Below, piece by piece: positions 30,790 to 53,183 of a DNA stretch of 59,606 nt; within the stretch, counting starts at the first letter, position 1, and each line of letters opens with the position of its first letter. Where the stretch lies: positions 1-59,606 of the forward strand of contig DAINAU010000002.1 in the NCBI GenBank assembly GCA_036733285.1, read 5' to 3'. The translations under genes were made by a program, and so were the position numbers. The notes beneath the pieces are model-generated. The model ran no database searches, was not told the origin of the DNA, and saw only the letters and a program-made list of their open reading frames with translations. The DNA is from a bacterium (lineage in GTDB: Bacteria; JAGOBX01).

Positions 30790-31992
30790 TTAGCGCATTA
30801 TTTCCCGCTTTTTAGATTTAAAAGCAAGTCCTAAAAAATAAGAAAAATATACGGACGAAGACAATATTACTCCGTCCAATCCGTAAAAATTATTAATTAA
30901 AAAAAATATTAATATGAATTTCAAATAAGTTTTGCAGTTTAATTCGAAAAAAATTATTTTCACAGTCAAGTATATGCAGACAAACAAAATCGCAAATCCT
31001 ATTATTCCGGATTCCGCAAGCGTTTGAAGATAATAATTATGAGCGTAAATAACATCGTTCGCATAATCCGGTTTATATTTGAAATAATAATTCTTGAATT
31101 GTCCGGGACCGACGCCGGTTAAAACATTCTCGTTTTTCCATATTTTTAGAGCCGCCTCGAAATTTCCAAAATAATATTTTATAGACTTATTGTAAATGTT
31201 ATTCATCCCGCGATAACTCATTATTATGATAAAACAAATAGCCAGAAAAAATATAGTTCCCAAAAAAATCCGCTTATTATTTTTTTTAATTAAAAATATC
31301 AAAGCCAAAGCTGACAAACAGGATAAAGCCGCCGATAAAGTTTTTGAATAAAACGCGCATGCGCCGGAAACGGCAATTAGAGCGGCAATAAAAATTTTTT
31401 CAAAAATATTAGAATTTTGTTTATACGATTCGATAAGCGCCGCCGCGGTTATTATCGAATAAGACGCGAATATGTTAGGTAAAACGAAAACCGAATAAAT
31501 TCTTCCATCAGCTATGCGTCCTAACGCTTCCGGCGGAAGGGAGGTTCCATATAATTCTAAAATATAATCGAATCCTATAAACTTTTGGTATAACCCGCGC
31601 ATAAATATATATGCCGCTAATGCGGTTAAAACGTATTTTTCGTATTTTAAATCCGAAAGATAAATCTGCAAAAAAAATAAAAAGCATATCAGCATTTTAT
31701 ACAGCTCAAATATCGACGCGCTTGCCGAGACTATTCCGGCGGATTTGGTAATCGCGTTGAAATAATTATATATAATAAATCCAAATGAAACCGCAGAAAA
31801 CAATTTTATTTGCGGAGAAAGGTTTGATCTTTTGTATTTCAAATAATTATAAATCAGAATAAAACAGACTATCAATAATTGGATAATCGCTATAACGGGC
31901 AGTAAATCGAAATTTTCGGAATTTTGAAAATCAACGAAAAGAAAAAAAATTAAAATAATATTAGATAAAATATTAACGATGCGGCTGAACAT
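30790..31992 (-). CDS. O-antigen ligase-like (Wzy_C) membrane protein
   Basis: Multi-TM; RIYSVFVLPNIFA; GVGPGQF; AHNYYLQTLAESGIIG. Confidence 0.85.
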   Translation of the reverse strand: MFSRIVNILSNIILIFFLFVDFQNSENFDLLPVIAIIQLLIVCFILIYNYLKYKRSNLSPQIKLFSAVSFGFIIYNYFNAITKSAGIVSASASIFELYKMLICFLFFLQIYLSDLKYEKYVLTALAAYIFMRGLYQKFIGFDYILELYGTSLPPEALGRIADGRIYSVFVLPNIFASYSIITAAALIESYKQNSNIFEKIFIAALIAVSGACAFYSKTLSAALSCLSALALIFLIKKNNKRIFLGTIFFLAICFIIIMSYRGMNNIYNKSIKYYFGNFEAALKIWKNENVLTGVGPGQFKNYYFKYKPDYANDVIYAHNYYLQTLAESGIIGFAILFVCIYLTVKIIFFELNCKTYLKFILIFFLINNFYGLDGVILSSSVYFSYFLGLAFKSKKREIMR

Positions 31993-33102: not shown

Positions 33103-33867
33103 TTATTTGGATTCTCCTTCAAATATTTTAGAAATTTTTATATAATTATTATTAACATTAATTTTAAAATCAAATTCAAAATTCTCAATAAATTTTTTTA
33201 TATTGTTTCTAACCGCTTCTTCTTCAGATTCAATAATTAACGACAGCGTATTATCGGTAATAAAATAACTGATAGTTACAAAACTATCGTTTTCGACGTC
33301 GTCTTCTACCGGATGTATGGATAACAATAACGTGTTGATATTATTTATTATTTTATACTTTTCATTGGAATTTATTTTTATTTTATTTATCAATTCGATG
33401 ATTAACTTCGAAGTTTCCTTCAAACATTCGTTATTATTGGCGGTTTTAAAAGTATAAAAGTTTTCATAATGCTCAATCATTTCTATGCCGCGCCTATTTT
33501 TATCATATAACAATCCGTTTACTACCCTGTTAAGTTTTGCTATCTGAAACGGTTTTGTAAGATAATGAACGGCTCCGGCGTCAAATCCTAAAATTTTATC
33601 GTCGATATCTCTTTTTTCGCTCAAAATAATCAACGGAACGTTTCCGTCGAATTTCTCCCGCAATTTTTTACTGAACTCGTAACCGTCCATCACAGGCATT
33701 TTTATATCTGTGATTATCAAATCCGGAAGTCCTGATGTTTCAATTAATTCAAGCGCAGCCCGCCCGTTGTCCGCATCCAGCGTTTCAATATTAAAAGATT
33801 CAAAATGTCGTTTTATAATCTGTTTAATATCATTATCGTCTTCTACAATCAATATTCTTTTTTTCAT
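33103..33867 (-). CDS. Response regulator: receiver domain plus divergent anti-sigma/HATPase-like C-terminal domain
   Basis: ILIVEDD, PDLIITDIKMPVMDG, YLTKPF. The C-terminal region has RsbW-like spacing but no N or G boxes. Start taken at ATG 33867. Confidence 0.85.
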   Translation of the reverse strand: MKKRILIVEDDNDIKQIIKRHFESFNIETLDADNGRAALELIETSGLPDLIITDIKMPVMDGYEFSKKLREKFDGNVPLIILSEKRDIDDKILGFDAGAVHYLTKPFQIAKLNRVVNGLLYDKNRRGIEMIEHYENFYTFKTANNNECLKETSKLIIELINKIKINSNEKYKIINNINTLLLSIHPVEDDVENDSFVTISYFITDNTLSLIIESEEEAVRNNIKKFIENFEFDFKINVNNNYIKISKIFEGESK

Positions 33868-33876
33868 AATCAAATT

Positions 33877-34875
33877 TCATTTTTGAAAATTTTGTTTATT
33901 CGAAAAATAATTTAATCCGCATTGCTGAGACATTACTTTTGAAAACGGTTTAACCGATTCGGTCAGCCAGACGTTTCCGCCTATAACCGAACCTTTGCCG
34001 ATAACCGTATCGCCTCCGAGAATCGTCGCTCCCGCGTAAATCACGCTTTCGTCTTCTATTGTCGGATGCCTTTTTTTCTTAAGGTCAACGTTTTTTCCAT
34101 TTTTGGATTTCGGAACGCTCAAAGCTCCAAGCGTTACGCCCTGATATATTTTCACGTCGTTTCCGATAACCGTCGTTTCGCCGATTACTACTCCGGTTCC
34201 GTGGTCTATAAAAAATCTTTTTCCAATTCTCGCTCCCGGATGTATGTCTATTCCTGTTATTGAATGAGCGTATTCGGTCATAATTCTCGGTATCAAAGGT
34301 ATTTGCATTTCATATAAAGAATGAGCTATTCTATAAATGAACACCGCTTTAAATCCGGGATAGCTGAATACTATTTCATCAACGCTTTTCGCGGCGGGAT
34401 CTCCGTCAAAAGCCGCATTTATGTCTTCGTTTAGCGTTTTCCTTATTTCGGGAAGTCTCTCAAGCGTTTTGCCGGCGAGAATTATTCCCTGATTATAACA
34501 ATCAACGCACATCCTATAATGATCGGAAGCGCATTTATGCCTGAAACTTTTCGATACTTGTTCGGACAATTTATCGAATAGTTTAAAAATATTCGAACCG
34601 ATATTATATTCCAGCGAAGATTCGGTTATATCCTGATCGCCAAAATATCCGGGAAAAAGTATATATTCCAGTTCCTCGATTATTTCAATAATCGAATTTT
34701 TTGAGGGAATTTTTTCGCTGCCCGTTTTTTTTATGGTTTCATCTTTTTTATATTCTTCGGCAAGTTTTTTCGCTATGCCGGCAATATTTTTTTTTATTTC
34801 AACGGCTACCGCCGGTTTTATTCCGTCAATCTTGCAAATTTTTTTTTGTAATCGTTTAGTCTTTTGATTCGTCAT
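33877..34875 (-). CDS. cysE: Serine O-acetyltransferase
   Basis: GDPAAKSVDEIVFSYPG, GIDIHPGARIG, FFIDHGTGVVIGET, QGVTLGA, KRHPTIED. Confidence 0.96.
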   Translation of the reverse strand: MTNQKTKRLQKKICKIDGIKPAVAVEIKKNIAGIAKKLAEEYKKDETIKKTGSEKIPSKNSIIEIIEELEYILFPGYFGDQDITESSLEYNIGSNIFKLFDKLSEQVSKSFRHKCASDHYRMCVDCYNQGIILAGKTLERLPEIRKTLNEDINAAFDGDPAAKSVDEIVFSYPGFKAVFIYRIAHSLYEMQIPLIPRIMTEYAHSITGIDIHPGARIGKRFFIDHGTGVVIGETTVIGNDVKIYQGVTLGALSVPKSKNGKNVDLKKKRHPTIEDESVIYAGATILGGDTVIGKGSVIGGNVWLTESVKPFSKVMSQQCGLNYFSNKQNFQK

Positions 34876-34882
34876 AATTATA

Positions 34883-35431
34883 TTATAAACCTAAAAAATC
34901 TTTAAACTTCGACATTATTCCTTTTTCTTTCTCGCGTTTCAGCATATTATCAACTTTAACGCTTTTGCCTTTTGCGGCGGTGATTTCTCCGCGTTTGTAT
35001 GCGTTCAATAATTTGCTCCATATTTTATTTTTTTTTGAAAGCGAATCGCCTTTTTCCATATACTTGTATAATTTATCAAGAACATATTTCTGGTTTATTC
35101 CATCGAATTTATTGCCTTGAACGCCGGTTATAGTTTCAGCGACCTTTTTATCCTTGCCAAGAACCGCATTAATCAAAACAATCGCGCAAAGCATATCGTC
35201 TCTAACGCTTTTTTCAGAAACGCTCACTTTTTGAAATCCTCTCTGCAATTCGACGGCTATCTTATCCAGTAATGGAAGAGAGTTTCCCGCCATATCAGGA
35301 TTTTTCGGCAAGGTGTTTAAAACTAAACTCTCGAACTTAGAAAGATTAATTTTTTTAAATTGACCGGTCGAAATTATTTCTTCAATCTGTTGAAGTTCCC
35401 AACTCGCCATTTTTTTATTTTCTTTTTTCAT
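34883..35431 (-). CDS. Hypothetical helical, lysine-rich protein
   Basis: Open frame between co-oriented genes. ATG 35431 is preceded by AGGT (ORF track extends to 35479). Confidence 0.7.
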   Translation of the reverse strand: MKKENKKMASWELQQIEEIISTGQFKKINLSKFESLVLNTLPKNPDMAGNSLPLLDKIAVELQRGFQKVSVSEKSVRDDMLCAIVLINAVLGKDKKVAETITGVQGNKFDGINQKYVLDKLYKYMEKGDSLSKKNKIWSKLLNAYKRGEITAAKGKSVKVDNMLKREKEKGIMSKFKDFLGL

Positions 35432-35510: not shown

Positions 35511-35939
35511 TCACCAAAATTTTTTATATTGTTCTTTATCGAAATATACTTTTCCATCTCTATATTTGGACGAATATATTTGAACGCATCCCCAACTCAA
35601 ACAATATTCGGGATTCCAGAACGGATTTTTTGTGGTGCCGTAATATATATGGCAATTTGATTTTTTGCAGACCATTTGAACGTAACACGGCCAAAAAACT
35701 CCAACAATATTTTGCGTCATATTTTTTTTGTTTTTTGACGAGCGAACTCCCATTGTAAGATTCTTATATTTCTGGAGTTTGAGATTTTTTTCCGTAATAA
35801 TTTTATATACGGATGATTTTGAAATCTTCCATTTTTCAGCCAAACCCTTTACTCCGTGTTTATCCAGAAGAACCTGCAAATCATTTTTTTTCATATTCCT
35901 CAGTTCTTCGAGTTTTGACTTGTTTTTTGTTCGGGGCAA
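35511..35939 (-). CDS. Small basic protein: HTH-like N-terminus plus five-cysteine C-terminal domain
   Basis: Strong SD GGAGGTG before the TTG start; GVKGLAEKWKISKSSVYKII HTH-like segment; C85, C91, C96, H97, C113, C118. Confidence 0.75.
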   Translation of the reverse strand: MPRTKNKSKLEELRNMKKNDLQVLLDKHGVKGLAEKWKISKSSVYKIITEKNLKLQKYKNLTMGVRSSKNKKNMTQNIVGVFWPCYVQMVCKKSNCHIYYGTTKNPFWNPEYCLSWGCVQIYSSKYRDGKVYFDKEQYKKFW

Positions 35940-36014
35940 TTCTGCACCTCCAATTTTTTTTTATCTCGCCATTCCCTTTTGCCATAAAAGCAAAAATTTA
36001 TTTGATAAGATACT

Positions 36015-36126
36015 AACGGCAACGCGCCGTTTTAATTCTTTTCTAGCCATTCCCTGGAAACGGCGAACGCGCCGTTTTAATTCTTTTTTCGCTATTCTCT
36101 GAAACGGCGAACGCGCCGTTTTAATT
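36015..36126. repeat. Three tandem GC-rich stem-loops at 44-bp period (AAACGGCG-AACG-CGCCGTTT)
   Basis: AACGGC begins at 36015, 36059 and 36103, and each hairpin is followed by TTAATT. The linkers resemble each other. Confidence 0.92.
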
Positions 36127-36134
36127 TTTTTCCA

Positions 36135-37295
36135 TTAATCTTTAAACGGAGACATAGCTCTTAACTTTTCAATTATTTCCGGCATTATTTTTACAACTTC
36201 ATCGACTTCTTCTTCCGTGTTGTATCTTGATAAGCTGAATCTTATGGAACCGTGAGCGTATTCGTATGGAACTGACATAGCCATAAGAACATGAGACGGT
36301 TCTAAAGAACCCGTTGCGCAGGCGGAACCGGTAGAAGCGCAAATCTTCTTTTCATTCATATATAACAAAACCGCCTCGCCTTCCACATTTTTAAAACTTA
36401 TGTTCAAAGTATTAGGCAGCCGGTTATCAATATCTCCATTAATTTTCACTAATCTAATATTATTTTTCAAAGCTGTTTCAAGTTTATCTCGCAATCTTTT
36501 AACTTCGCTGTTTTCATATTCAATATGTTTTTTCGCAAGTTCGGCGGCTTTCCCCAAACCTATAATAGAAGCCGCGTTTTCTGTTCCGGCTCTTAATCCG
36601 TTTTCCTGATGTCCGCCGATTAAAAAAGGTTTAAAAGGCGTATTTTTTTTTAAATACAAAACTCCGATTCCTTTTGGAGAATGGAGTTTATGTCCGGAAA
36701 TTGAAAGCATATCAATATGACTTTTTTTTAAATCAATATTGATTTTTCCGGCTGCCTGAACCGCGTCTGTATGAAATAAAACTCCTTTTGATTTAACGAT
36801 TTCAGAAATTTTTTCGATTGGAAATACGGTTCCGGTTTCATTATTCGCCCACATAACGCTCGCTATGGCGGTTTCATCGGTAAGGGATTTCTCAAGTTCT
36901 TTTAAATCAATTCGACCGAGCGAATCCACGTCCAAAAAAGTTATTCTATAACCGGTTCCGGATAAGTATTTGCAATAATTCAAAACCGCCGGATGTTCGA
37001 CTTTAGTGGTCACGATATGTTTTTTTTCCGGAAAAGACAATATCGCCGAATTTATCGCGGTATTATCGGATTCCGAGCCGCAACTTGTAACAATTATTTC
37101 TTCTATCGAATCGGCTCCTAACAAAAACGCTATTTTCTCTTTAGCGACGGCTATTTTTTTAGCTACGCCTCCGCCAAAAGAATGAGCGCTTGAAGGATTT
37201 CCGTAATACTCCGAGAAATACGGGAGCATTTCCTGAAGGACTTCGGGCGATGTTTTTGTTGTGGCATTATTATCAAAATATATTTCTTTCGACAA
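36135..37295 (-). CDS. nifS: Cysteine desulfurase NifS/IscS
   Basis: YFDNNATT, YGNPSSAH, HTDAVQ, SGHKLH (PLP Lys), STGSACATGS (catalytic Cys). Confidence 0.97.
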   Translation of the reverse strand: MSKEIYFDNNATTKTSPEVLQEMLPYFSEYYGNPSSAHSFGGGVAKKIAVAKEKIAFLLGADSIEEIIVTSCGSESDNTAINSAILSFPEKKHIVTTKVEHPAVLNYCKYLSGTGYRITFLDVDSLGRIDLKELEKSLTDETAIASVMWANNETGTVFPIEKISEIVKSKGVLFHTDAVQAAGKINIDLKKSHIDMLSISGHKLHSPKGIGVLYLKKNTPFKPFLIGGHQENGLRAGTENAASIIGLGKAAELAKKHIEYENSEVKRLRDKLETALKNNIRLVKINGDIDNRLPNTLNISFKNVEGEAVLLYMNEKKICASTGSACATGSLEPSHVLMAMSVPYEYAHGSIRFSLSRYNTEEEVDEVVKIMPEIIEKLRAMSPFKD

Positions 37296-37296
37296 T

Positions 37297-38115
37297 CTAT
37301 CTTACCTCTTTAACCTGAATATTCTTATCAATCCGGGATTTAAGCGTTTCTTCTACAAATGATTTTATCGTCATCGTTGCCATTGGACAGCCAGAACAGG
37401 AACCTTTCAGTTTAACTGAAACCACATTGTCGGCAAAATCTACCAATTCAATATCGCCGCCGTCGTTTTGCAATCCCGGTCTTATTTCATCGTTTATCAC
37501 GCTTTTAACTTTTTCTATTTTTTCTAAATTTGTCATTTTTCTTTCTCCTTGAGTTTTATAAATTTTATTTATTATCTCTAAAATGTCGGGTTTGCATTTT
37601 CCGCAGGCGCCTCCGGCTTTTGTGTGATTAATAACATCTTCGACAGTTTTTAAATTATGGTCTTTTATCGCTTTTTCAATTTTAAAATTCGATACTTTAA
37701 AACAATGACATATTATTATTTCGCCGGGCTGCAGATTTTCTCCCAAATCCTCTTTATAATAAACCTTTAGCGCTTTTTCCACAGCTTCCTGCGCCATAAC
37801 CGAACAATGTATCTTCGCCGGCGGCAGTCCGCCCAGCATATTCACAACGTCCTGATTGGTGATTTTTTTTACTTCTTCCAGCTTTTTACCTTTAATTAAA
37901 TCGGTTAAAACCGACGACGAAGCAATTGCGCTGCCGCAACCAAACGTTTGAAACTTAACGTCGATTATTTTTTCATCCTCTATCTTTAAATACAATTTCA
38001 AAGCGTCTCCGCAAGCCGCGCTTCCGACTTCCACCACCACGTTGGCGTCGTCAAGTTTGCCCGCGTTATGAGGATTCAAAAAATGCTCCTTTACTTTATC
38101 AGAATATTCCCACAT
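37297..38115 (-). CDS. nifU: Three-domain Fe-S scaffold NifU
   Basis: IscU domain (HFLNPHN, ACGD, FGCGSAIAS, KIHCSVMA), BFD-like CHC...GGACGKC, and Nfu domain CSGCPMA. Confidence 0.96.
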   Translation of the reverse strand: MWEYSDKVKEHFLNPHNAGKLDDANVVVEVGSAACGDALKLYLKIEDEKIIDVKFQTFGCGSAIASSSVLTDLIKGKKLEEVKKITNQDVVNMLGGLPPAKIHCSVMAQEAVEKALKVYYKEDLGENLQPGEIIICHCFKVSNFKIEKAIKDHNLKTVEDVINHTKAGGACGKCKPDILEIINKIYKTQGERKMTNLEKIEKVKSVINDEIRPGLQNDGGDIELVDFADNVVSVKLKGSCSGCPMATMTIKSFVEETLKSRIDKNIQVKEVR

Positions 38116-38132: not shown

Positions 38133-38164
38133 AAACACTTGTTTTTAAAAACACTTGTTTTTAA
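38133..38164. promoter_or_regulatory. Tandem palindromic operator-like sites between the nifU promoter and RBS
   Basis: AAACACTTGTTTTTAA x2 (38133-38148, 38149-38164). 38145-38164 is TTAAAAACA-CT-TGTTTTTAA (perfect 9+2+9 dyad) and 38133-38144 is a 5+2+5 dyad. Confidence 0.65.
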
Positions 38165-38180
38165 CAAAATTCAAATATAT

Positions 38181-38209
38181 ATTATAGCTTTAAAATTCTC
38201 AATTGTCAA
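38181..38209 (-). promoter_or_regulatory. Consensus sigma70 promoter for nifU-nifS
   Basis: Minus strand: TTGACA (38209-38204), exactly 17 bp, TATAAT (38186-38181), about 65 bp upstream of the nifU ATG. Confidence 0.85.
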
Positions 38210-38405
38210 GAAATATCATTAAAAAATAAAAAAAAAAGTTGTTATAATTTATTTGTTAATATATAATTTTATAAATTTTTTTAAAATATTTTTCTTCTAT
38301 TCTATTTTTATAACTATTTTTTTAAAATTCTTATTAAAAAATGAACGAAGATTTTTATTTTAAAATCATATCTTTTTTATTTTTTTTTGTTTAAAATTGA
38401 ATATA

Positions 38406-41400
38406 ATGATTGAATATAAAAATCGCGTTTATTTTTTTGTATTGTTGTTTTTTTTAATCGAGTGGATTAATCCTTATAATTTCTACGCCGAACCCGCCGA
38501 CAAACAAAAAGAAGAAATTTACAATCTCGCTTCTCAAATCATTGGAATTATCGATAATAAAATTTCCGCAGTCTCAGAATCGGATAAAAAAAAACTGGCT
38601 GAATTATTAATCGAGCAATCGGAATATTTTCTTTTAAAAATGCAAACTACTGAAAACACCGATTCTGATTTGGCTTTGAAAGATAAAGAATCTTATATAA
38701 ATTTATTAAAAAAAACCGAACAAATCTACAATTTCATTGATTACCAGCCCGGAATATTTTTATGTAAAAGCAGATTATTGAAATTTGAAATATCAGGAAT
38801 TGAACCGTTATCCGATTATGAATCCTCGAAAAAAAATCTTATCGGCAAAATATCGTCTTATTTAAAAGAATTGCCCGCCGAAGAATCGGCGCAATTTAAA
38901 AGTTCCTCAAATCAAAATCTGGAAATTAAACCCCTTCCATCCGGTTCGGAATCCGTTGCGGAAAGCGTTTCCGCAAAATCCGTTGCGGAAAGCGTTTCCG
39001 CAAAATCCGTTGCGGAAAGCGTTTCCGCAAAATCCGTTGCGGCACCTGTAAAAAATGTTAATGATAAATCAATTTTTTCCCAACAAACCGGAATAAATAC
39101 TGATACGCCGCAATCTCAAAGTTCCGGACAATCTCCGGAAACCGGCATTATCTCCAATGTCAGTTCTACTCAAAATGAAACTCATCCGGTTATACCGGTA
39201 AATTCCGTTTCGGGTTCTGCCGAAAATTCAAACGATTTTGATTCTTCAGCCGCAGCCGATTCGCTCCCCAAAAAAATAATCTTATCCGATACTTATCAAA
39301 TACAAGAAATTAAGGAAATCCTCGAACCGTCGGTTTCATCAAGTCTTCAGCCTTTTTTTCATCAACCGGCATTATTGGAACCAAAACTTTCATATTCAAA
39401 CGATATGAAAATATCGCCGGTTCTCCGTCATATTCTTTTCACCGAAAAATTAGAAAAAGAATTTGAAGAAATAAGAAGTCAACGTTTATTAGACCTTACG
39501 GATTTAAAATACGGAAATACAAAATTATCAATCAGCGGACAAAAAACGATTAATTTTTCTTATTCAAACAGAAAATACTCTAAGAATACGGATTCTACCG
39601 AAAATTCATCTGATTTTAAAATCGACCAGACGCTTGAAGTAAAAGTTCGCGGTAAAGTCGGCGACAACGTGGAAGTCAATATTGATTATGACGATCAGCG
39701 TTCTTCATCGAACAGACAGCAATTAAGCATCGATTACAAAAGCGACGAACATATTTTAAATAAACGGACAAACAGTAATATTTTTTCCGGATACGCCGCG
39801 TTCGGGGATATAGTTTTATCGTTGCCGAGCACGGAATTCGTTTCATACCGCAGAAGTTTATTTGGAATTAACGGCGGAATAAAAATCAGAAATCTTAATT
39901 ATTCCATACTTAAAGCGGACCAGATAACGCTTGACATTATCGCTTCACGCACAAAAGGCGAACCCGGTCACAAAGAATTTACCGGAAATAACAGTTCGCA
40001 GATTATCAATACGGTATTTGACGTTAATTACGTAAAAAACAAATATTTTAAAGTTCATACCGGCGTTGGACTCGATACCGATATCGACGTAACGTCTTTG
40101 TCGGTATATATAGACGATAAAAATCCCACTAATGACCAATCGAATATAGATACTTTCGCTATTGAAGTGAATCCAAACGATCATACAAAATACAATATTT
40201 CAATGAACGGAGATACTTACAGAATCTATTCGTTCACTCAGCTTACAGCCGTAAAGGATTACACTTACGACAAAACAAAAGGAATTCTCACATTAAATTC
40301 TTATATAACCGACAATTACGCAATCGCCGTAACTTACACTACATATAAAGGATATGCCACGCCCCATAAAAAACTTATAAAAAAGGATAAAGATTCTCAA
40401 AATTCGGATACTTATTCAATTTATAACATTAAAAACAGATACAGTTTCGGAGTAAGCAACATCAATAAAAACGACCCTGATTTCATTTTTAAAATCCAGG
40501 ATAAAAACAATAATTATATGTCCGATTATTACGCCAATGCGGCTGATTCAAGTTCGGCGATTTCTTTCTTGAAAATTTTCGGACTCGATAAAACAGGTCC
40601 TGGTCCGGATGGTTTATACGGAACATCCGACGACAGACCGGACGGAAAAATAGACGATGATTTTATTGATTACGAAGACGGCTGGGTTGAATTCCCCGAT
40701 CCGCAACCTTTTAACGGCTCAGGCTCGGCTCAATACGGTTTATCAAATCCTTTAATTTACACGGACGATAATCCTACGAGCAGATTTAGATTTTATCTTG
40801 AATTAAAAGCTCAAAGTCAGCAGTTTTTTCTTAACGCTTTTGACCTCGTTAGAAACAGCGAGATAGTGAAAGTCGACGGAAGAACTCTTACGAGAAACGT
40901 TGATTACTATATTGATTATGAAAGCGGTTTATTGATTTTTCTTGACCCGTCCTTATTAACAAAAAACAGCAAGGTTGTAGTCGATTACGAAAGAGTTCCG
41001 TTTGGATCGTCGGCAAATAAAACGCTGGTCGGAACAAGATTTGAAGCCATTGTGAACCCGAATTTTAAAGCCGGAACAACAATGATTTTTAACACCAACG
41101 ATAAATCTTCTGAAATTCCGACAATTGACGCCGCGCCCCAGAGCACATCGGTAAAAGATTTTGATATGGAAATGCGCCCTGCAAACTTATTCGTCAATAT
41201 ATTAAATAAATTTTTAAAAAACGATATTAAAGAGCCGCCGTCGTCATGGTTTGACATTAAACTTATTACAGAAGTCGCAAGAAGCGAATTCGACCCCAAT
41301 ATTTTCGGCAAGGCTATGATAGACGATATGGAATCTTCCAAAGACGCCATTGATATCAATATGAATTATAAATCATGGATGCTTACCCATTTAACGGAAT

Positions 41401-44400
41401 CCCAACCCGGCTGGAAAAATCTGCCGGTTTCAAAAAAAGGGTGGGTGACTTTTGACGAGACCTCGCTTGACAACAATATCGGACATAAAGCGGTTCTGGA
41501 AGACAATGAAGACAATCAAAAATCTATGATTATTTCATATGATTTAACCAACGATTCCGCCGGAGTTTTAAATTATGACACATGGTTTGCAATTAGAACG
41601 CTCGTATCAAAAGACGGCGTAGACATATCAAAGAAAAAATATCTTGAATTCTGGATTCAAGGAGCCGACAGTTTTAATATAAGTCTTGATTTAGGAAGAA
41701 TTAATGAAGACGCCGACGGCGACGGAGTGTTGGACCAGGAAGACGGTTTATATGTTAACGGAATCCCGACTGAAAAAAATTCATTGAACGGAGTTTTAAA
41801 CAAATCTCCCAACGAAGACGTGGGTTTATCATACGAATGCGGCGGCAAAATTAAAAATACCGGCAAAGGCAACGGAAGATTGGATTCGGAAGATATGAAC
41901 GGAGACGGCGAACTTGATCAGATAGAATCTTTTTACAGAATAACCGATATTGACACGTTTCAAGGCGAAGGAAAAATAATAAACGGAATCCCTTACAAAT
42001 TTTATAGAATAACTCTTGGAGATTTATATCAAAACTCTATGAATTCGCCTAATAATAAAAGCATTAAACACATCAGATTTATTTTCACAAGAAAAGACGG
42101 GGCAACCGCAGCTCCTGCCGGCAATATTTATATGGACTATCTTTCCATAGTCGGAAGTTTATGGCTCGACGGAGATACGGATAATTTTAAAGCCGGAAGC
42201 AAAAACAATATCGACGACAACGATTACGCTTCTTTCAACGAAGAAATGTCTTTAAGAAAAGTCGAAGACGAAGACGAAGGAGCCGTAAAAGAAAGCGCGT
42301 TATTCTTGAAATACGATAAAATCGGTTATTACGATTACAGTTCGCCTTCATACAAATATTACGCGGAACGAGATTTCGGAAGATCTATAAGCGTGGCAAA
42401 ATATGAAAAATTGATTTTTTACGTCCGCAGTTCGGAAAATAACGGAGAAACAGCGTTTATCAGACTTGGAGACCAAAACAATTATTACGAATATAAATTT
42501 AAAATTCCCGAAGTATCTTCAGACATAACAAAATGGGAGAAAATTGAAATTCCATTAATGGCGTTCAGAACTATTGTCAATTCCATTAACGACAGCTCTG
42601 TGAATCCTCCTTATATTATTGATTCCGGCCCTTACCGGGTTTGCGCTCAAACCTCGCTTGTTTCATTATATAACATCAGAACAATAAAATTCGGAGTTAT
42701 AGGCGACACGAATTTATCCACAGGAAATTTGTTTATTAATACGCTCTATGTGGAAGGAGCGATTAAAGAAACGGGAATTGCCAGAAAAACTCAGTGGCAA
42801 ACCAAATTTTACAAGGACATTTTTATTTTCAACGCAAGGGAAGATTACAGAGAAAACACTTTCCGCAGCGTCGATGAGATTTCTTCTTCCGTATCGCAAT
42901 CATTCGTTCCGGAAAAAAGCTCGAAAAAAAGTTACGACGGCAGCGTGGCAATCGGCAGACTGCTTCCTTCAAAATGGGGAATAACTCTGCCGGTAAGCGG
43001 AACTTATACAAAAAGCGACGTTGTGGTTGAACCGGACGTAGTTCAGGACGTCGAGCGGAGTAAGATAGGGACTACCGGATCTAAAACGCAAACGTTTTCA
43101 ACGTCTTTTTCAAAAGACAAATTTCCGTTGCTGAAACTTGATTATGAAAATTCGGAAACAGATAAAGATTTAACCGAATCAAAATACAAATTTCTATCGA
43201 AAAAATTAAATTCTTCGGCAAGTTATTCAATTAATTTCAACAAACATATTTTCGGAGAATTGGCTTTAATAAAAAAAATACCACTGCTTAATAAAATCCC
43301 TTCCGGAAAAGAATTACGCGTCGATATGAACTACCAGTATAATTACACTATCGACGATAAAGATTATATTCTCGGAACCGAAGCTTCCGCATACGACAAA
43401 TATGTTACGCATTACAAGAAAATGGGAATAACTTCCAAACCGGCAAACTGGATTAGACTTCAGCCGAATATTTCGATAACCGACAAATATCATACCACTA
43501 TGCAGGTAGACGGACTTGAAAACAATATAGTTCAAACCTCCATAAACATAGATATAATCAAAGTATTGGGAATAAAACCGGTATTCGATTTCAGCCGCAG
43601 CAAAGATTCAAGATACGATATTTCAAGACCTGATTCCGACCCGATTGAAAATCTCGATTACGGCGCCGGAGTAAAACTCGATATATATCCGGTTGACTGG
43701 TGGAAACGCCTGAAATTTTTAGACGGCAGGTTTAATCTCAGCGGAAAATATGTGGAAACCTTAAACGCAAATCAAGCCGTTAAAGATAAAAATTCAGATA
43801 TAAACGCTTCATTATCATTGGACGTAAATATCAGACCCAACGAATTATGGAAAAGACTTAAATTCCTGACCGTTCATTATTCATACGGCAATAACGTATC
43901 CGCGACATATTCAAAATTGGGAACCGATAAGGATTTCAATTCGATTTATACGGATTATTTTTCAAAATACATCTGGCCCTGGTTAAGCAAGGATAGAATA
44001 CCTATAAACGAGGGCGACACTTCAATAATAGATAAACGTAGCGCGGCGAACAATTCTCAATCGCACACCATAAACGGACAATTTAATTTCTGGGATCCTT
44101 TAAGCTTGAGATATGCTTATTCCACAAAAAATTCTATTACGCAAAGTCAGTCTTCGGAGAGTTTTAGCAAATCGTTAAGCGCTCAGATAAATTCGCGGCT
44201 TGATTTGATTAAAAGCCTTAAACTTATGAAAAAAACAAAAAAATCAAGTTTAAACATCGATTATAAATATTCAAAAGACGATTCCGGCGATTACAAAATG
44301 AATTTAACCGAATCGCTTAATCACGACAGAAACATAGGTCTTGAAATATTATGGACTGATAAATTCAACACTGTTTTCAATATGGGACTTCCGTTCAGCA

Positions 44401-44786
44401 AAAAAAATTCAGTTTCCGAAAGCGGACTTACGATTGAAAAAACGAATTCCTACACTCCTAAGATCACGTGGAATTATTATACCGCGTCGCCTTTCAAATT
44501 GTTAAAACCATTCACAAATAAAAAATGGATTTTCGACAATAAACTAAATCTTAACGGAACAATCAATTATAATCTGCAAAAAACCTCGATTCAACGAACC
44601 GACAATACCAATTATAATTCTGCGAATCTTGTCGAATTCGGTTTTACCGTAGGCGCTCAATACGATATGAGCGATTTTTTCAGAATGAGCGCGGATTTGC
44701 GTTTGAACAAGCATCAAAATAAAATTACCGAAGGCGACGATTACATAGAATACGGCATTAACACTAAAATTATTATTATTTTCTGA
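38406..44786 (+). CDS. sprA: SprA/Sov-like very large outer-membrane protein (T9SS translocon homolog)
   Basis: Signal peptide; SprA-like motifs IDQTLEVKVRGKVGDNVEVNIDYDDQ, SEIVKVDGRTLTRNVDYYIDYESG, KTLVGTRFE, EVARSEFDPN..G.AMIDDME, DLGRINED.DGDG.LD.ED, LDSEDMNGDG; beta-strand-rich C-terminal ~600 aa ending in Phe. The ORF track starts at TTG 38397. Confidence 0.8.
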   Translation: MIEYKNRVYFFVLLFFLIEWINPYNFYAEPADKQKEEIYNLASQIIGIIDNKISAVSESDKKKLAELLIEQSEYFLLKMQTTENTDSDLALKDKESYINLLKKTEQIYNFIDYQPGIFLCKSRLLKFEISGIEPLSDYESSKKNLIGKISSYLKELPAEESAQFKSSSNQNLEIKPLPSGSESVAESVSAKSVAESVSAKSVAESVSAKSVAAPVKNVNDKSIFSQQTGINTDTPQSQSSGQSPETGIISNVSSTQNETHPVIPVNSVSGSAENSNDFDSSAAADSLPKKIILSDTYQIQEIKEILEPSVSSSLQPFFHQPALLEPKLSYSNDMKISPVLRHILFTEKLEKEFEEIRSQRLLDLTDLKYGNTKLSISGQKTINFSYSNRKYSKNTDSTENSSDFKIDQTLEVKVRGKVGDNVEVNIDYDDQRSSSNRQQLSIDYKSDEHILNKRTNSNIFSGYAAFGDIVLSLPSTEFVSYRRSLFGINGGIKIRNLNYSILKADQITLDIIASRTKGEPGHKEFTGNNSSQIINTVFDVNYVKNKYFKVHTGVGLDTDIDVTSLSVYIDDKNPTNDQSNIDTFAIEVNPNDHTKYNISMNGDTYRIYSFTQLTAVKDYTYDKTKGILTLNSYITDNYAIAVTYTTYKGYATPHKKLIKKDKDSQNSDTYSIYNIKNRYSFGVSNINKNDPDFIFKIQDKNNNYMSDYYANAADSSSAISFLKIFGLDKTGPGPDGLYGTSDDRPDGKIDDDFIDYEDGWVEFPDPQPFNGSGSAQYGLSNPLIYTDDNPTSRFRFYLELKAQSQQFFLNAFDLVRNSEIVKVDGRTLTRNVDYYIDYESGLLIFLDPSLLTKNSKVVVDYERVPFGSSANKTLVGTRFEAIVNPNFKAGTTMIFNTNDKSSEIPTIDAAPQSTSVKDFDMEMRPANLFVNILNKFLKNDIKEPPSSWFDIKLITEVARSEFDPNIFGKAMIDDMESSKDAIDINMNYKSWMLTHLTESQPGWKNLPVSKKGWVTFDETSLDNNIGHKAVLEDNEDNQKSMIISYDLTNDSAGVLNYDTWFAIRTLVSKDGVDISKKKYLEFWIQGADSFNISLDLGRINEDADGDGVLDQEDGLYVNGIPTEKNSLNGVLNKSPNEDVGLSYECGGKIKNTGKGNGRLDSEDMNGDGELDQIESFYRITDIDTFQGEGKIINGIPYKFYRITLGDLYQNSMNSPNNKSIKHIRFIFTRKDGATAAPAGNIYMDYLSIVGSLWLDGDTDNFKAGSKNNIDDNDYASFNEEMSLRKVEDEDEGAVKESALFLKYDKIGYYDYSSPSYKYYAERDFGRSISVAKYEKLIFYVRSSENNGETAFIRLGDQNNYYEYKFKIPEVSSDITKWEKIEIPLMAFRTIVNSINDSSVNPPYIIDSGPYRVCAQTSLVSLYNIRTIKFGVIGDTNLSTGNLFINTLYVEGAIKETGIARKTQWQTKFYKDIFIFNAREDYRENTFRSVDEISSSVSQSFVPEKSSKKSYDGSVAIGRLLPSKWGITLPVSGTYTKSDVVVEPDVVQDVERSKIGTTGSKTQTFSTSFSKDKFPLLKLDYENSETDKDLTESKYKFLSKKLNSSASYSINFNKHIFGELALIKKIPLLNKIPSGKELRVDMNYQYNYTIDDKDYILGTEASAYDKYVTHYKKMGITSKPANWIRLQPNISITDKYHTTMQVDGLENNIVQTSINIDIIKVLGIKPVFDFSRSKDSRYDISRPDSDPIENLDYGAGVKLDIYPVDWWKRLKFLDGRFNLSGKYVETLNANQAVKDKNSDINASLSLDVNIRPNELWKRLKFLTVHYSYGNNVSATYSKLGTDKDFNSIYTDYFSKYIWPWLSKDRIPINEGDTSIIDKRSAANNSQSHTINGQFNFWDPLSLRYAYSTKNSITQSQSSESFSKSLSAQINSRLDLIKSLKLMKKTKKSSLNIDYKYSKDDSGDYKMNLTESLNHDRNIGLEILWTDKFNTVFNMGLPFSKKNSVSESGLTIEKTNSYTPKITWNYYTASPFKLLKPFTNKKWIFDNKLNLNGTINYNLQKTSIQRTDNTNYNSANLVEFGFTVGAQYDMSDFFRMSADLRLNKHQNKITEGDDYIEYGINTKIIIIF
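38950..39042 (+). repeat. In-frame 27-bp tandem repeat (SVAESVSAK x3 plus partial), each unit a perfect hairpin
   Basis: aatccgttgcggaaagcgtttccgcaa at 38950, 38977 and 39004, each containing TTGCGGAAA-GCG-TTTCCGCAA. Confidence 0.95.
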
Positions 44787-47933: not shown

Positions 47934-50798
47934 CTATTTTTTTTTATAAGAATTCAAATTGTTTTCAAATATTATGATTTTATTGTCAAAACACAATAAT
48001 AAATCAATATCTCCGTCGCTGTTATAATCGCAGAAATACGACTGATATGCGATAGAATCATTTTGTCTGGCTATATCGGTTTCCATGTTTTCAGAAATAA
48101 AATCCAAATCTTTGTTCTTGAAAATATAATTTTTTTTATTTTTGCAACTGATAAACAAATCGGAATTTCCGTCCCCGTCGTAATCGCCCGAACATACGGA
48201 AGCCGCTTCTGACAAAAGGTCGACCTGCGATTTTGATTCTCTCAAAGCGAGATCTTTTCCCATATTCCAAAACAGCAAATTATTATATAGCCCGCCGTTT
48301 ATCGGAATATTTGAAAAAGTTAAAAAAAGGTCGGTTTTGCCGTCGTTGTTTAAATCGGCAAATTCTGCGCAGGAAATTTTTATATCCGCGTTTTCAATAA
48401 GAATTTTCCTGTCAAAGGATTTTCCGTTTTTGTTTTCGAGCAAAAGAAGATTATTGTTCATAGCAAAATTTGTTTTGCACAAAATATCCGAGTATCCGTC
48501 CTTATTAAAATCCGCGGCTTTTATAAAATCAAACGAATCCGTCATTGATATGCCCAGCTCTGCGTTTGCGTTGGCAAATGTATAATCTTTGATATTTTCA
48601 AAAAGAAAAATCCTGCCGGTCTTCTGAAGAATAAGCAAATCGGGATATCCGTCGGCATTTATTTCCAATATCTGCAAATCTTTTATATCGGAATTGGCGG
48701 AAATTTTAAACTTATTTTCTATCGCTTCAAATTTTCCGTAACTCAATCCTCTGAAAGCTTTCAAAAATCCGTTTTGAAGAATAAGCAAATCATTTTTTCC
48801 GTCATTTTCCAAATCGCAAACAAAAGGTTTGATAAAATTTTCAGTGTCGTCAAGCGTAATCCCCGTATTTACCGGCTCAAATTTTGATTTGCCGTTGTTA
48901 TAAAAAATAATGATATTGAAATCCCGGACGACAATTATATCGGAAAGCCCGTTTCCGTCGACGTCTTCAAAAATCGAAAACGGAATCAGATTATCCGCTA
49001 TCGAAATCAAATTTTCAGAAAAAATTTTCCCCTTAAATTTCGGCGTAACGCTTGTAAATATTTCAGGACTTAAATTTGGAACTTCATCTCCGCATTTTAT
49101 TCCAAGTTTATATTCGTAATCGTTCATAACTCCGGATATGGTAAAAATTCCTATTCCGGGAGCGAGTTTGAATTCCTTTAACGCTTTGTTATCCTTATCG
49201 TAAAGAGTTAACAACTGAAATTCAATATCTCCGTTCAATTCCGGCGAAACCGTCCAAGACGCGGTTATTCGGTTATTTATTCCGGACGCCGTTAAATTTG
49301 AAACTGGAGCCGGAGCGTCAACGTCTGCCGGAATCGCAAATCCTATTTCGAACTCGGAACTTTCATTTAACGATTCGTCGTATGCGGATAAAGCGATTTT
49401 ATATTTTATGCCGTTAGTTACATTTTCAATAAGATAAGAGCTGAAATTTTTTGGAAGATGAACATTTTTTAAAAATTCGTTCTTGTCGTTATACAAGTAT
49501 AAAATATATCCCTTTAAATCATAATCGTTTTGTTTTTTTGAAAGTCTTATTTTAATAGAATTATTTAAAGAATCTACAATCATTTTCGGCGGCTTTGCCG
49601 GAGGGATATCGTCTATGGCAAGCGCTTCGATTTCTTTCCCCTGCGTTTCAGGTCTAAGCGGTTCCTGCAAAGTAACTCTAAAAAGATATTTGTTTCCGTT
49701 AGTAAGATTTTCAACGATGTGGCTCTGCATCTGCGGACCGGCTATTCCAATATATTCCCAAGCTCCGGTTCTTGCATTGTTCTGATAAATCAATTGTCTT
49801 TCGATTTTTCTGTTAATAGACAAATCCCAGTATAATCGTATTCTTTTATCAAAAGGTTCAAACCGTAAATTAACTATTTCTGCCGGTTTTCTTATGTCCA
49901 GCTCAGGTATTTCTGAAAAAGCCTCGTATAAATAATTAGCGCAATATTCAAGCGTTCGCGCAACCTGTTTTACATAATCGGTATTCCAGTCGGTATATGA
50001 AACGTCAAGTCCGGACAGCGAATCGACATTTTTAGATACGACTGCATTTCTATTCAAACCGTCGGACATAGGCAAAAGATTATACATCGTAATCGCGTTC
50101 ATTCTTTTATACGGCTCGGGATTATACATATCCAAAACCGTAAATTTAATGAGATTTACAACGGCTTCTTCAATATTGAATTTATTCTTATATCCGTCAA
50201 ATTTTATCTGCGAATCAAGTTTATATAAATTTTCCGAAGCCGCAAATTTATCAATCTCGGCGAAGTATTCTTTTATAACCTCGTTTTTAGCCGAACCAAA
50301 AGCGGAATTTTTTCCCATACTGTAGGGCCACAACGCCAAACTGCAATAATATTTGGTCATCGTTCCGAGAAAAAAAGCGCCGGCTTCGGCGTTTCCGTTT
50401 TTTATCGAAGACGCGGCTTTATTCATTTCCGATTCTATTATCTGCATAAACCGCCGCATAGAGGCATTATCTTTCAATAATGAAACGTTGTTTTCGTCCG
50501 GCAACGGGATATTGTAATAAAAATTCGAGAGCTGCCTGTAATAATAATCCATATCTATTTGTTTGGTTATGGCGTCAAGCTCAAAGTTTTCTCCGGAAGC
50601 CGCAAGCGCTCCGAATTCAAAATACTTCTTGTATTTTGAAATCCATTCGAATTTCTTTTTTGTATTCTCGTCAAATGAAACAGACTTGTTGAAACTGTAA
50701 TAATATAAATTTAAATTTTTATCGATTATTTGCAAGTCATATCCGTAAGAATACGAAACCGAAAAAATTATCAGGGAGGCAATTAATATTTTTTTCAT
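47934..50798 (-). CDS. Secreted modular protein: degenerate Zn-phospholipase C/P1-like domain, about three Fn3 domains, FG-GAP/VCBS repeats
   Basis: Signal peptide; AFFLG.M.KY...L...Y.MG helix; Fn3 motifs (LTNGNKYLFRV, VTNGIKYKIALSAYDESLNES); D-x-D/N-x-D-G-x-x-D repeats. Confidence 0.75.
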   Translation of the reverse strand: MKKILIASLIIFSVSYSYGYDLQIIDKNLNLYYYSFNKSVSFDENTKKKFEWISKYKKYFEFGALAASGENFELDAITKQIDMDYYYRQLSNFYYNIPLPDENNVSLLKDNASMRRFMQIIESEMNKAASSIKNGNAEAGAFFLGTMTKYYCSLALWPYSMGKNSAFGSAKNEVIKEYFAEIDKFAASENLYKLDSQIKFDGYKNKFNIEEAVVNLIKFTVLDMYNPEPYKRMNAITMYNLLPMSDGLNRNAVVSKNVDSLSGLDVSYTDWNTDYVKQVARTLEYCANYLYEAFSEIPELDIRKPAEIVNLRFEPFDKRIRLYWDLSINRKIERQLIYQNNARTGAWEYIGIAGPQMQSHIVENLTNGNKYLFRVTLQEPLRPETQGKEIEALAIDDIPPAKPPKMIVDSLNNSIKIRLSKKQNDYDLKGYILYLYNDKNEFLKNVHLPKNFSSYLIENVTNGIKYKIALSAYDESLNESSEFEIGFAIPADVDAPAPVSNLTASGINNRITASWTVSPELNGDIEFQLLTLYDKDNKALKEFKLAPGIGIFTISGVMNDYEYKLGIKCGDEVPNLSPEIFTSVTPKFKGKIFSENLISIADNLIPFSIFEDVDGNGLSDIIVVRDFNIIIFYNNGKSKFEPVNTGITLDDTENFIKPFVCDLENDGKNDLLILQNGFLKAFRGLSYGKFEAIENKFKISANSDIKDLQILEINADGYPDLLILQKTGRIFLFENIKDYTFANANAELGISMTDSFDFIKAADFNKDGYSDILCKTNFAMNNNLLLLENKNGKSFDRKILIENADIKISCAEFADLNNDGKTDLFLTFSNIPINGGLYNNLLFWNMGKDLALRESKSQVDLLSEAASVCSGDYDGDGNSDLFISCKNKKNYIFKNKDLDFISENMETDIARQNDSIAYQSYFCDYNSDGDIDLLLCFDNKIIIFENNLNSYKKK

Positions 50799-50895
50799 AA
50801 AAAAAATCCCGATTATATATAAAATTCAGATTATATATAATATTATAATCAAATTTTTAATAGTCAATATTTTTTATAAAATCTTTAAACTTTTT

Positions 50896-53166: not shown

Positions 53167-53183
53167 ATTTTTTTTCCTATTAA

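Follow-up and report, generated by a model that had tools for sequence, protein, structure and literature searches.

Could a small protein with no recognized relatives act as a regulator in an operon for iron-sulfur (Fe-S) cluster assembly? The question is raised by a minus-strand open reading frame (ORF) of 142 amino acids (aa), here called ORF142, which lies between nifS and a cysE-like gene on contig DAINAU010000002.1 of assembly GCA_036733285.1; the whole stretch of 59,606 nucleotides (nt) that was analyzed is referred to below as the window. The coding sequence occupies positions 35511 to 35939 (142 aa plus the stop codon), and an initial annotation had described its product as a candidate Fe-S-sensing regulator. 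The comparison of related loci demonstrates that ORF142 is a genuine gene under extreme purifying selection, and its product appears to join a helix-turn-helix (HTH)-like segment to a module with five Cys residues and one His residue (Cys5His). The occurrence of both in a small protein encoded inside a nifUS operon, without an Rrf2 gene nearby, makes it a convenient test case for a possible new sensor fold. Our tentative reading is of a transcription factor that depends on metal or thiols and serves Fe-S and cysteine homeostasis, and we give this reading a little less than an even chance.

The ORF142 gene and its rate of evolution

ORF142 begins with a TTG codon preceded at a distance of 7 nt by a Shine-Dalgarno sequence, GGAGG (35947 to 35951, minus strand), and the encoded protein has an isoelectric point (pI) of 9.8, in agreement with the basic 142-aa protein and strong ribosome-binding site of the initial annotation. 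Sites of the GGAG type occur at the same place in the orthologs. The start codon itself varies among them (TTG, ATG or GTG), as do the synonymous codons for Pro2 (CCC/CCG) and Arg3 (CGA/CGC/AGA/CGG), with the N-terminus fixed as MPRTKNKS. The position of the start is thus backed by synonymous variation in codons 1 to 3. Two overlapping plus-strand ORFs (35728 to 36102 and 35813 to 36016) were considered as the true genes at this site, with ORF142 as a non-gene, and this possibility was ruled out by the ratio of nonsynonymous to synonymous substitution (dN/dS) in the minus-strand frame and by the conserved start.

Eleven related loci (L001 to L011) were collected from metagenome-assembled genomes (MAGs) and metagenomes, comprising anaerobic-digester-type JGI samples, Rifle-type groundwater, an NCBI MAG and ENA assemblies. 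In all, 8 distinct ORF142 protein sequences were obtained, with identities of 70–99% to that of the window. ORF142 proved to be more conserved than the genes around it: between the window and L001, amino acid identity is 88% for ORF142, compared with 72% for nifU, 70% for nifS, about 64–68% for cysE, 46% for ORF182 (the gene directly downstream of ORF142) and 43% for the response regulator gene at the end of the cluster, and between the window and L006 it is 92% for ORF142 and 70% for NifS. Synonymous sites are saturated in all of the operon genes compared, the proportion of synonymous differences (pS) being 0.70–0.89 for pairs of ORF142 genes, and dN is 0.05–0.085 for ORF142 as against 0.24–0.25 for nifS, that is, 3–5 times lower in ORF142. 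Because the synonymous sites are saturated, the high identity of ORF142 is not the product of recent horizontal transfer or of constraint acting on the DNA itself, and both explanations were ruled out. As a reference we used the UvrB protein of the window, whose relatives in the databases (not genome-matched to the ORF142 loci) are 73–85% identical within the clade and about 60–66% identical beyond it. This comparison places the 70–92% identity of ORF142 at the level of highly conserved housekeeping proteins. For an orphan gene, evolution 3–5 times slower than that of NifS is unusual, and it marks a lineage-specific and evidently important function.

The distribution of the gene is narrow. A word-indexed search of 5.8e9 proteins returned 5 clusters of ORF142 sequences, all with at least 70% identity, and in a GTDB-based collection the gene occurred in one species-level genome, a MAG. 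A hidden Markov model of the family, run against 1.84e9 representatives, retrieved its own cluster alone at E ≤ 1e-3 and no known family, in keeping with the proposed novelty of the protein; for a query of 142 aa this limit corresponds by our estimate to roughly 45 bits in a library of that size, so that a relative sharing a 40-residue core alone could escape. Weak HTH matches were all that Pfam, NCBIfam and PHROGs returned, and ORF142 was not found in IMG/VR, in a phage collection or in a plasmid collection. An origin from a phage or other mobile element was ruled out by the lack of viral and plasmid relatives, together with the fixed location next to nifS. Judged from these searches, ORF142 is an orphan and represents a new, lineage-restricted protein family, apparently confined to a few uncultured genomes.

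Domain organization of ORF142

Conservation is unevenly distributed along the protein, with 75% of the alignment columns invariant in residues 1–56, 17% in residues 57–79, 69% in residues 80–118 and 38% in residues 119–142. By this pattern, ORF142 is a protein of two conserved putative modules, a basic arm with an HTH and a Cys5His core, joined by a variable, Lys-rich linker. The first module (35772 to 35939, this and the following segments on the minus strand) consists of the invariant basic arm MPRTKNKS and an HTH-like domain of three predicted helices; the linker is encoded at 35703 to 35771, the core at 35586 to 35702, and a C-terminal tail rich in aromatic and basic residues at 35514 to 35585. 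The AlphaFold2 (AF2) model of the full-length protein, which was built from 6 aligned sequences and has a mean predicted local distance difference test (pLDDT) score of 58, places helices at residues 4–15, 18–36 and 41–50 with pLDDT of about 78–82, predicts the linker to be disordered (pLDDT below 50 at residues 57–77), and assigns the tail, with low confidence, short strands and a final helix.

The initial annotation had placed an HTH-like segment at about residues 29–49, and this assignment is likely as to its substance, though every match behind it is sub-threshold. Segment 27–52 of the protein from the window matched HTH_7 with 16.2 bits (E=0.012), below the Pfam gathering threshold of 23.8 bits, and the same model was matched below threshold by six of six family members, the best at E=0.0028. 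Further sub-threshold HTH matches within residues 22–60 came from Mga, Mor, YlxM, SpoIIID and the DNA-invertase and late-activator families of PHROGs. In a profile search of the PDB, the best match was the DNA-binding domain of gamma-delta resolvase (E=0.39), with DKHGVKGLAEKWKISKSSVYKIITEKN aligned to 1res; an alignment to NKG2D, a protein with a C-type-lectin-like fold, was obtained at E=0.5 and was judged to be due to chance. HTH matches by Foldseek in the PDB, such as Rex, lambda cII and the N-terminal domain of RpiR, were of low probability, all at E>2. The best reading of the N-terminal domain is a resolvase/Hin-like arm and HTH, because HTH matches come from several independent families and the basic N-terminus is invariant. 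The protein is probably cytoplasmic, as its N-terminus appears by eye to be highly charged and to lack a hydrophobic, signal-like segment.

The core follows the pattern WPC-x5-C-x4-CH IYYGTTKNP[FY]WNPEYC-x4-C and is presumed to bind metal. The arrangement described earlier, C85-x5-C91-x4-C96-H97...C113-x4-C118, was verified on the translation, and all five Cys residues and H97 are invariant in the 8 distinct orthologs, down to 70% identity. The five Cys residues span 34 residues, and among the last 65 residues of the protein there are 5 Cys, 4 Trp and 8 Tyr; in the long ORFs of the window, Cys makes up 0.94% of residues. The single insertion or deletion in the family shortens C91-x4-C96 to C-x3-C in L002/P0004; in the low-confidence AF2 model this loop forms the turn of a beta-hairpin, and the C113–C118 pair lies at a short helix. 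The C-terminal domain had no match in Pfam at E ≤ 10. Coordination of a metal is the most likely role predicted for the six Cys and His residues, since they are invariant in a probably cytoplasmic protein. Their spacing fits Zn or an Fe-S cluster alike, either as two C-x4-C knuckles or as a C-x5-C-x4-C-H set, and Zn binding would be at least as plausible as Fe-S binding.

Operon context, promoter and neighboring genes

ORF142 is the first gene after nifU and nifS and stands two genes before cysE, as had been noted, in the order nifU-nifS-ORF142-ORF182-cysE-response regulator. All of these genes lie on the minus strand. The order from nifS to the response regulator gene was conserved in every recovered locus long enough to show the genes, and nifU was also present where the contig reaches that far (L001, L004, L006, L009 and L011). 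The gap between nifS and ORF142 is 27–28 nt in five loci, 104 nt in L009 and L010, and 195 nt in the window and L011, and that between ORF142 and ORF182 is 6–12 nt in most lineages. The genes from nifU to the response regulator likely form an operon, because they are co-directional and tightly packed, with a single perfect promoter before nifU. This promoter is of the sigma-70 type (TTGACA-17-TATAAT, 38181 to 38209, minus strand), and nowhere else in the region is there a 12/12 match.

Immediately after the -10 box, in the 5' leader of nifU, lies the element that had been proposed as the operator for ORF142 (38133 to 38164, minus strand). It is a perfect tandem duplication (2.0 copies) of a 16-bp unit, AAACAAGTGTTT, present twice, and each unit contains an AT-rich 7-2-7 palindrome, AAAAACA-AG-TGTTTTT. 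The palindromes are thus real, but they are a feature of one strain: the duplication recurs in L011, which represents the same strain as the window, and is absent from the nifU promoters of L009 and L001, where ORF142 is 93% and 88% identical, respectively, and the leaders are entirely different. At most one residue of the HTH core (residues 23–55) differs between the window and L009 or L001. Because a cognate operator should be conserved along with a nearly identical HTH core, and this element is not, its role as an operator is unsupported. The -35 box TTCTTGAC, by comparison, is conserved in the window, L001 and L009.

The spacer between nifS and ORF142 has also been remodeled. In the window it contains 2.7 copies of a 44-nt tandem repeat (36015 to 36131, minus strand), each with a GC-rich hairpin, AAACGGCG-CGTT-CGCCGTTT. 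These repeats were found only in the strain represented by the window and L011, and the spacer of L009 and L010 carries an unrelated insert of 104 nt. The hairpins receive higher scores as intrinsic terminators on the plus strand, where no gene lies, and the exact 20-mer of the hairpin repeat occurs nowhere else in the window. The fold of the spacer had a z-score of only -1.7, and an Rfam scan of the leader and the spacer gave no match at gathering thresholds, either to a riboswitch or to another known RNA.

The genes upstream of ORF142 are firmly assigned. The product of nifU (37297 to 38115) is a three-domain NifU scaffold with Pfam domains NifU_N, Fer2_BFD and NifU (TIGR02000, 311.5 bits, above the cutoff), and that of nifS (36135 to 37295) is the cysteine desulfurase NifS (TIGR03402, 599.7 bits, above the cutoff). 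Downstream, ORF182 (34883 to 35431) adjoins ORF142 in every locus. It was listed as an ORF of 198 aa extending to 35479 from an upstream TTG codon, and its orthologs have 182–183 aa. ORF182 is a fast-evolving orphan, 46–59% identical where ORF142 is 70–92% identical; it belongs to no family in Pfam, NCBIfam or PHROGs, is restricted to the clade like ORF142, and may be a functional partner of the latter.

The serine O-acetyltransferase gene that follows (33877 to 34875), named cysE here, encodes a protein with an N-terminal extension of about 130 aa, which passes the EpsC-type cutoff (NF041874, 155.4 bits, cutoff 150) and fails that of canonical CysE (TIGR01172, 166 bits, cutoff 210). Genes downstream of it include membrane proteins and a 400-aa ORF (30790 to 31992) whose counterpart in L006 and L007 has a Wzy_C domain, as in O-antigen ligases. 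Given the EpsC-type score and these downstream genes, the name cysE overstates how firmly the gene is tied to cysteine synthesis. The response regulator gene (33103 to 33873) is co-oriented with cysE at a distance of 3 nt, and its product has a receiver domain (PF00072, 92 bits) followed by a C-terminal half of about 130 aa without a recognizable output domain. In L009 (GCA_964644095.1, CAZXXU010000111.1, 1952 to 5659), nifS and cysE each appear as two separate ORFs, with ORF142 and ORF182 intact; these splits look like frameshift errors of the assembly rather than pseudogenes.

The absence of an Rrf2 gene from the 59.6-kb window, which formed part of the original argument, was upheld: a search by phmmer --max with hand-entered sequences of E. 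coli IscR and B. subtilis CymR gave no match, and Pfam scans of ten further ORFs of the window, mostly smaller ones, revealed no Rrf2-type regulator. Other features of the window include an ORF of 2129 aa (38397 to 44786), in which a perfect 27-nt repeat present in 3.4 tandem copies (38950 to 39042) encodes SAKSVAESV repeats near the N-terminus, and four consecutive large minus-strand ORFs (954, 756, 859 and 866 aa) at 47934 to 58360 with no NCBIfam match at E ≤ 1e-10, which make up an unannotated block. The genome is of the diderm type and also carries MlaE, LpoB-like and DUF6588 genes.

Candidate roles and comparison with known systems

As a metal- or thiol-dependent transcription factor, ORF142 would found a family of small DNA-binding proteins that are cytoplasmic and restricted to one lineage. 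The first 56 residues would form a basic arm and a three-helix HTH of the resolvase/Hin/SpoIIID kind with a putative function in DNA binding, and would be connected through the flexible Lys-rich linker to a beta-rich module of roughly 60 residues. In that module the five invariant Cys and the His may coordinate a metal center, which could be a structural Zn or an Fe-S cluster, and the occupancy or redox state of the center would govern the folding or dimerization of the module and, in this way, the binding of DNA. The gene would be co-transcribed with nifU and nifS from the promoter at 38181 to 38209, with ORF182, cysE and the response regulator gene following. Here we infer DNA binding, metal binding, the identity of the metal, the regulatory targets and feedback on nifUS.

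Several observations weigh against such a regulator. No HTH model in Pfam or NCBIfam reaches its curated cutoff for ORF142, and the Cys residues are no more conserved than the residues next to them, since the entire block around them is invariant. The C-terminal domain is beta-rich in the AF2 model, which is unreliable here (pLDDT of 50–60), and has the same secondary structure when modeled alone (mean pLDDT 59.6), and Foldseek gave nothing in the PDB at E<2. When the nifU upstream regions of the window, L011, L009 and L001 were aligned and searched for inverted repeats (half-sites of 5–7 nt, spacers of 0–12 nt) and for k-mers, the three promoter types had only the -35 box in common, and no conserved operator was found. 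A dedicated regulator of a single operon would not usually be more conserved than NifS and NifU are, and a shared operon in one narrow clade says little about a common function.

Three other explanations of the same observations were weighed. In a specific form of the proposal in the initial annotation, which had allowed for an Fe-S cluster or Zn, ORF142 would hold an Fe-S cluster built by NifS and NifU, and the holo form of this non-Rrf2 protein would take the place of IscR in repressing the nifUS-cysE operon through the repeats at 38133 to 38164. The location of the gene inside the nifUS operon, which is conserved across the clade, is in favor of this model, as are the absence of an Rrf2 gene from the window, a set of residues (C85-x5-C91-x4-C96-H97) that loosely resembles the ligands of IscR at a similar distance from the N-terminal HTH, and the position of the repeats, which follow the -10 box and could there be bound by a repressor. 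However, the repeats are specific to one strain and missing from L009 and L001 despite an essentially unchanged HTH core, ORF142 lacks similarity to Rrf2 and SufR, and the spacing of the Cys residues would suit two Zn knuckles, C-x4-C ... C-x4-C, just as well, the first being C-x3-C in one ortholog; the absence of Rrf2, moreover, covers 59.6 kb of the genome only. By analogy, a replacement of IscR would be plausible, resting on gene context and on the loose resemblance in Cys spacing, but we consider the full model unlikely. The main rival to a sensing regulator is an HTH protein with a structural Zn and a general role, as a global regulator or a nucleoid-associated or RNA-polymerase-associated protein, in which the Cys5His module would serve dimerization or contact with nucleic acid instead of sensing, and the position after nifS would be a historical accident. 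Conservation above that of NifS, NifU and CysE and within the UvrB range of 73–85% is what proteins with numerous partners or targets typically show, and the absence of a conserved operator in the operon's own promoter points the same way. So do several traits of the C-terminal domain: its two C-x4-C pairs lie at a beta-hairpin turn and a short helix in the low-confidence AF2 model, the first C-x4-C loop tolerates the deletion of one residue, and the domain abounds in aromatic and basic residues, a composition that suits nucleic-acid binding. Against such an accident of position stands a linkage to nifS and cysE that was never broken in the recovered loci, despite heavily remodeled intergenic DNA, and neither fold nor sequence matches any known Zn ribbon; on balance this explanation seems somewhat improbable.

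ORF142 could also be a non-regulatory accessory of Fe-S assembly, a cluster carrier, electron donor or persulfide acceptor that docks on NifS or NifU, its N-terminal helices serving protein contacts. ISC operons of other bacteria carry accessory genes such as fdx, iscX and iscA (PMC8593673), and the Cys-rich module and the placement of the gene directly after nifS, at 27–28 nt in most lineages and in probable translational proximity, would be consistent with such a role. Set against it are the consistent HTH-type matches from several independent families, the strongly basic arm and linker of a protein with a pI of 9.8, the lack of similarity to ferredoxins, A-type carriers, Nfu or IscX, and conservation greater than that of the supposed partners, and we regard an accessory function as highly improbable. 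At the other extreme, ORF142 might found a third, structurally new class of Fe-S-sensing transcription factor, after Rrf2 and SufR, that replaces IscR in an uncultured diderm lineage. We think this quite unlikely, and the same holds for the architecture that it would entail, in which a resolvase-like HTH would be tethered to a novel cluster-binding Cys5His fold matured by the NifS and NifU encoded just upstream. If true, conservation above that of NifS would fit a global rather than an operon-specific regulator.

These possibilities can be placed among the regulators already described. In the literature consulted, every dedicated regulator of Fe-S biogenesis is a member of the Rrf2 family (IscR, RisR and RirA, RisR being a divergent member) or of the SufR type, and for most anaerobes little is known of how NIF-type or minimal systems are controlled (PMC8593673, PMC9973013). 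With IscR, RisR and CymR (Rrf2, PF02082), ORF142 shares a length of about 140–160 aa, an N-terminal HTH, a Cys3-His-like motif near residues 85–105 and an operon that also encodes a cysteine desulfurase and a scaffold. In IscR the ligand set is C92-x5-C98-x5-C104-x2-H107 (PMC8593673). The Rrf2 motif, C-x5-C-x5/6-C with or without a His, is similar but not identical to C85-x5-C91-x4-C96-H97, and ORF142 has the additional C113 and C118. PF02082 was not among the Pfam matches of ORF142 at E ≤ 1, and phmmer with the hand-entered IscR and CymR sequences gave none to the ORF142 frame at E ≤ 10. Rrf2 proteins have a winged HTH and a long dimerization helix, neither of which is seen in the low-confidence AF2 model of ORF142, with its three helices, disordered linker and beta-rich domain. 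The gene for such a regulator is also the first of its operon, and that for ORF142 is the third.

The Cys-rich part of ORF142 invites comparison with zinc ribbons and knuckles, which it resembles in its Cys pairs (C91-x4-C96 and C113-x4-C118), the first of them at a predicted beta-hairpin turn with a loop length that varies in one ortholog. Its pairs are nevertheless C-x4-C instead of the usual C-x2-C, C85 and H97 are additional invariant residues, and no Zn-ribbon or treble-clef family was matched in sequence or fold by PDB profile, Foldseek (with the low-confidence AF2 model) or Pfam searches. The basic N-terminal arm followed by three helices recalls gamma-delta resolvase and Hin (HTH_7), as well as SpoIIID, YlxM and Mor. 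Unlike the recombinases, ORF142 lacks a catalytic domain and carries its HTH at the N-terminus, joined to a Cys-rich module; all of the matches lie below the cutoffs.

SufR, the [4Fe-4S] repressor of suf operons in cyanobacteria and actinobacteria, offers a functional parallel, having an HTH, C-terminal Cys ligands and a connection to an Fe-S assembly operon, and it demonstrates that solutions outside the Rrf2 family exist (PMC8593673). No homology to SufR was seen for ORF142, whose profile search of the 1.84e9 representatives returned its own cluster and whose Pfam and NCBIfam matches were weak HTH matches only. SufR is larger than ORF142, its HTH belongs to another class, and its Cys residues follow another pattern. 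It is also tied to the SUF operon, and ORF142 is linked to an operon of the NIF type. If the proposed metal- or thiol-dependent regulation holds, ORF142 would work like IscR and SufR without belonging to either family by sequence.

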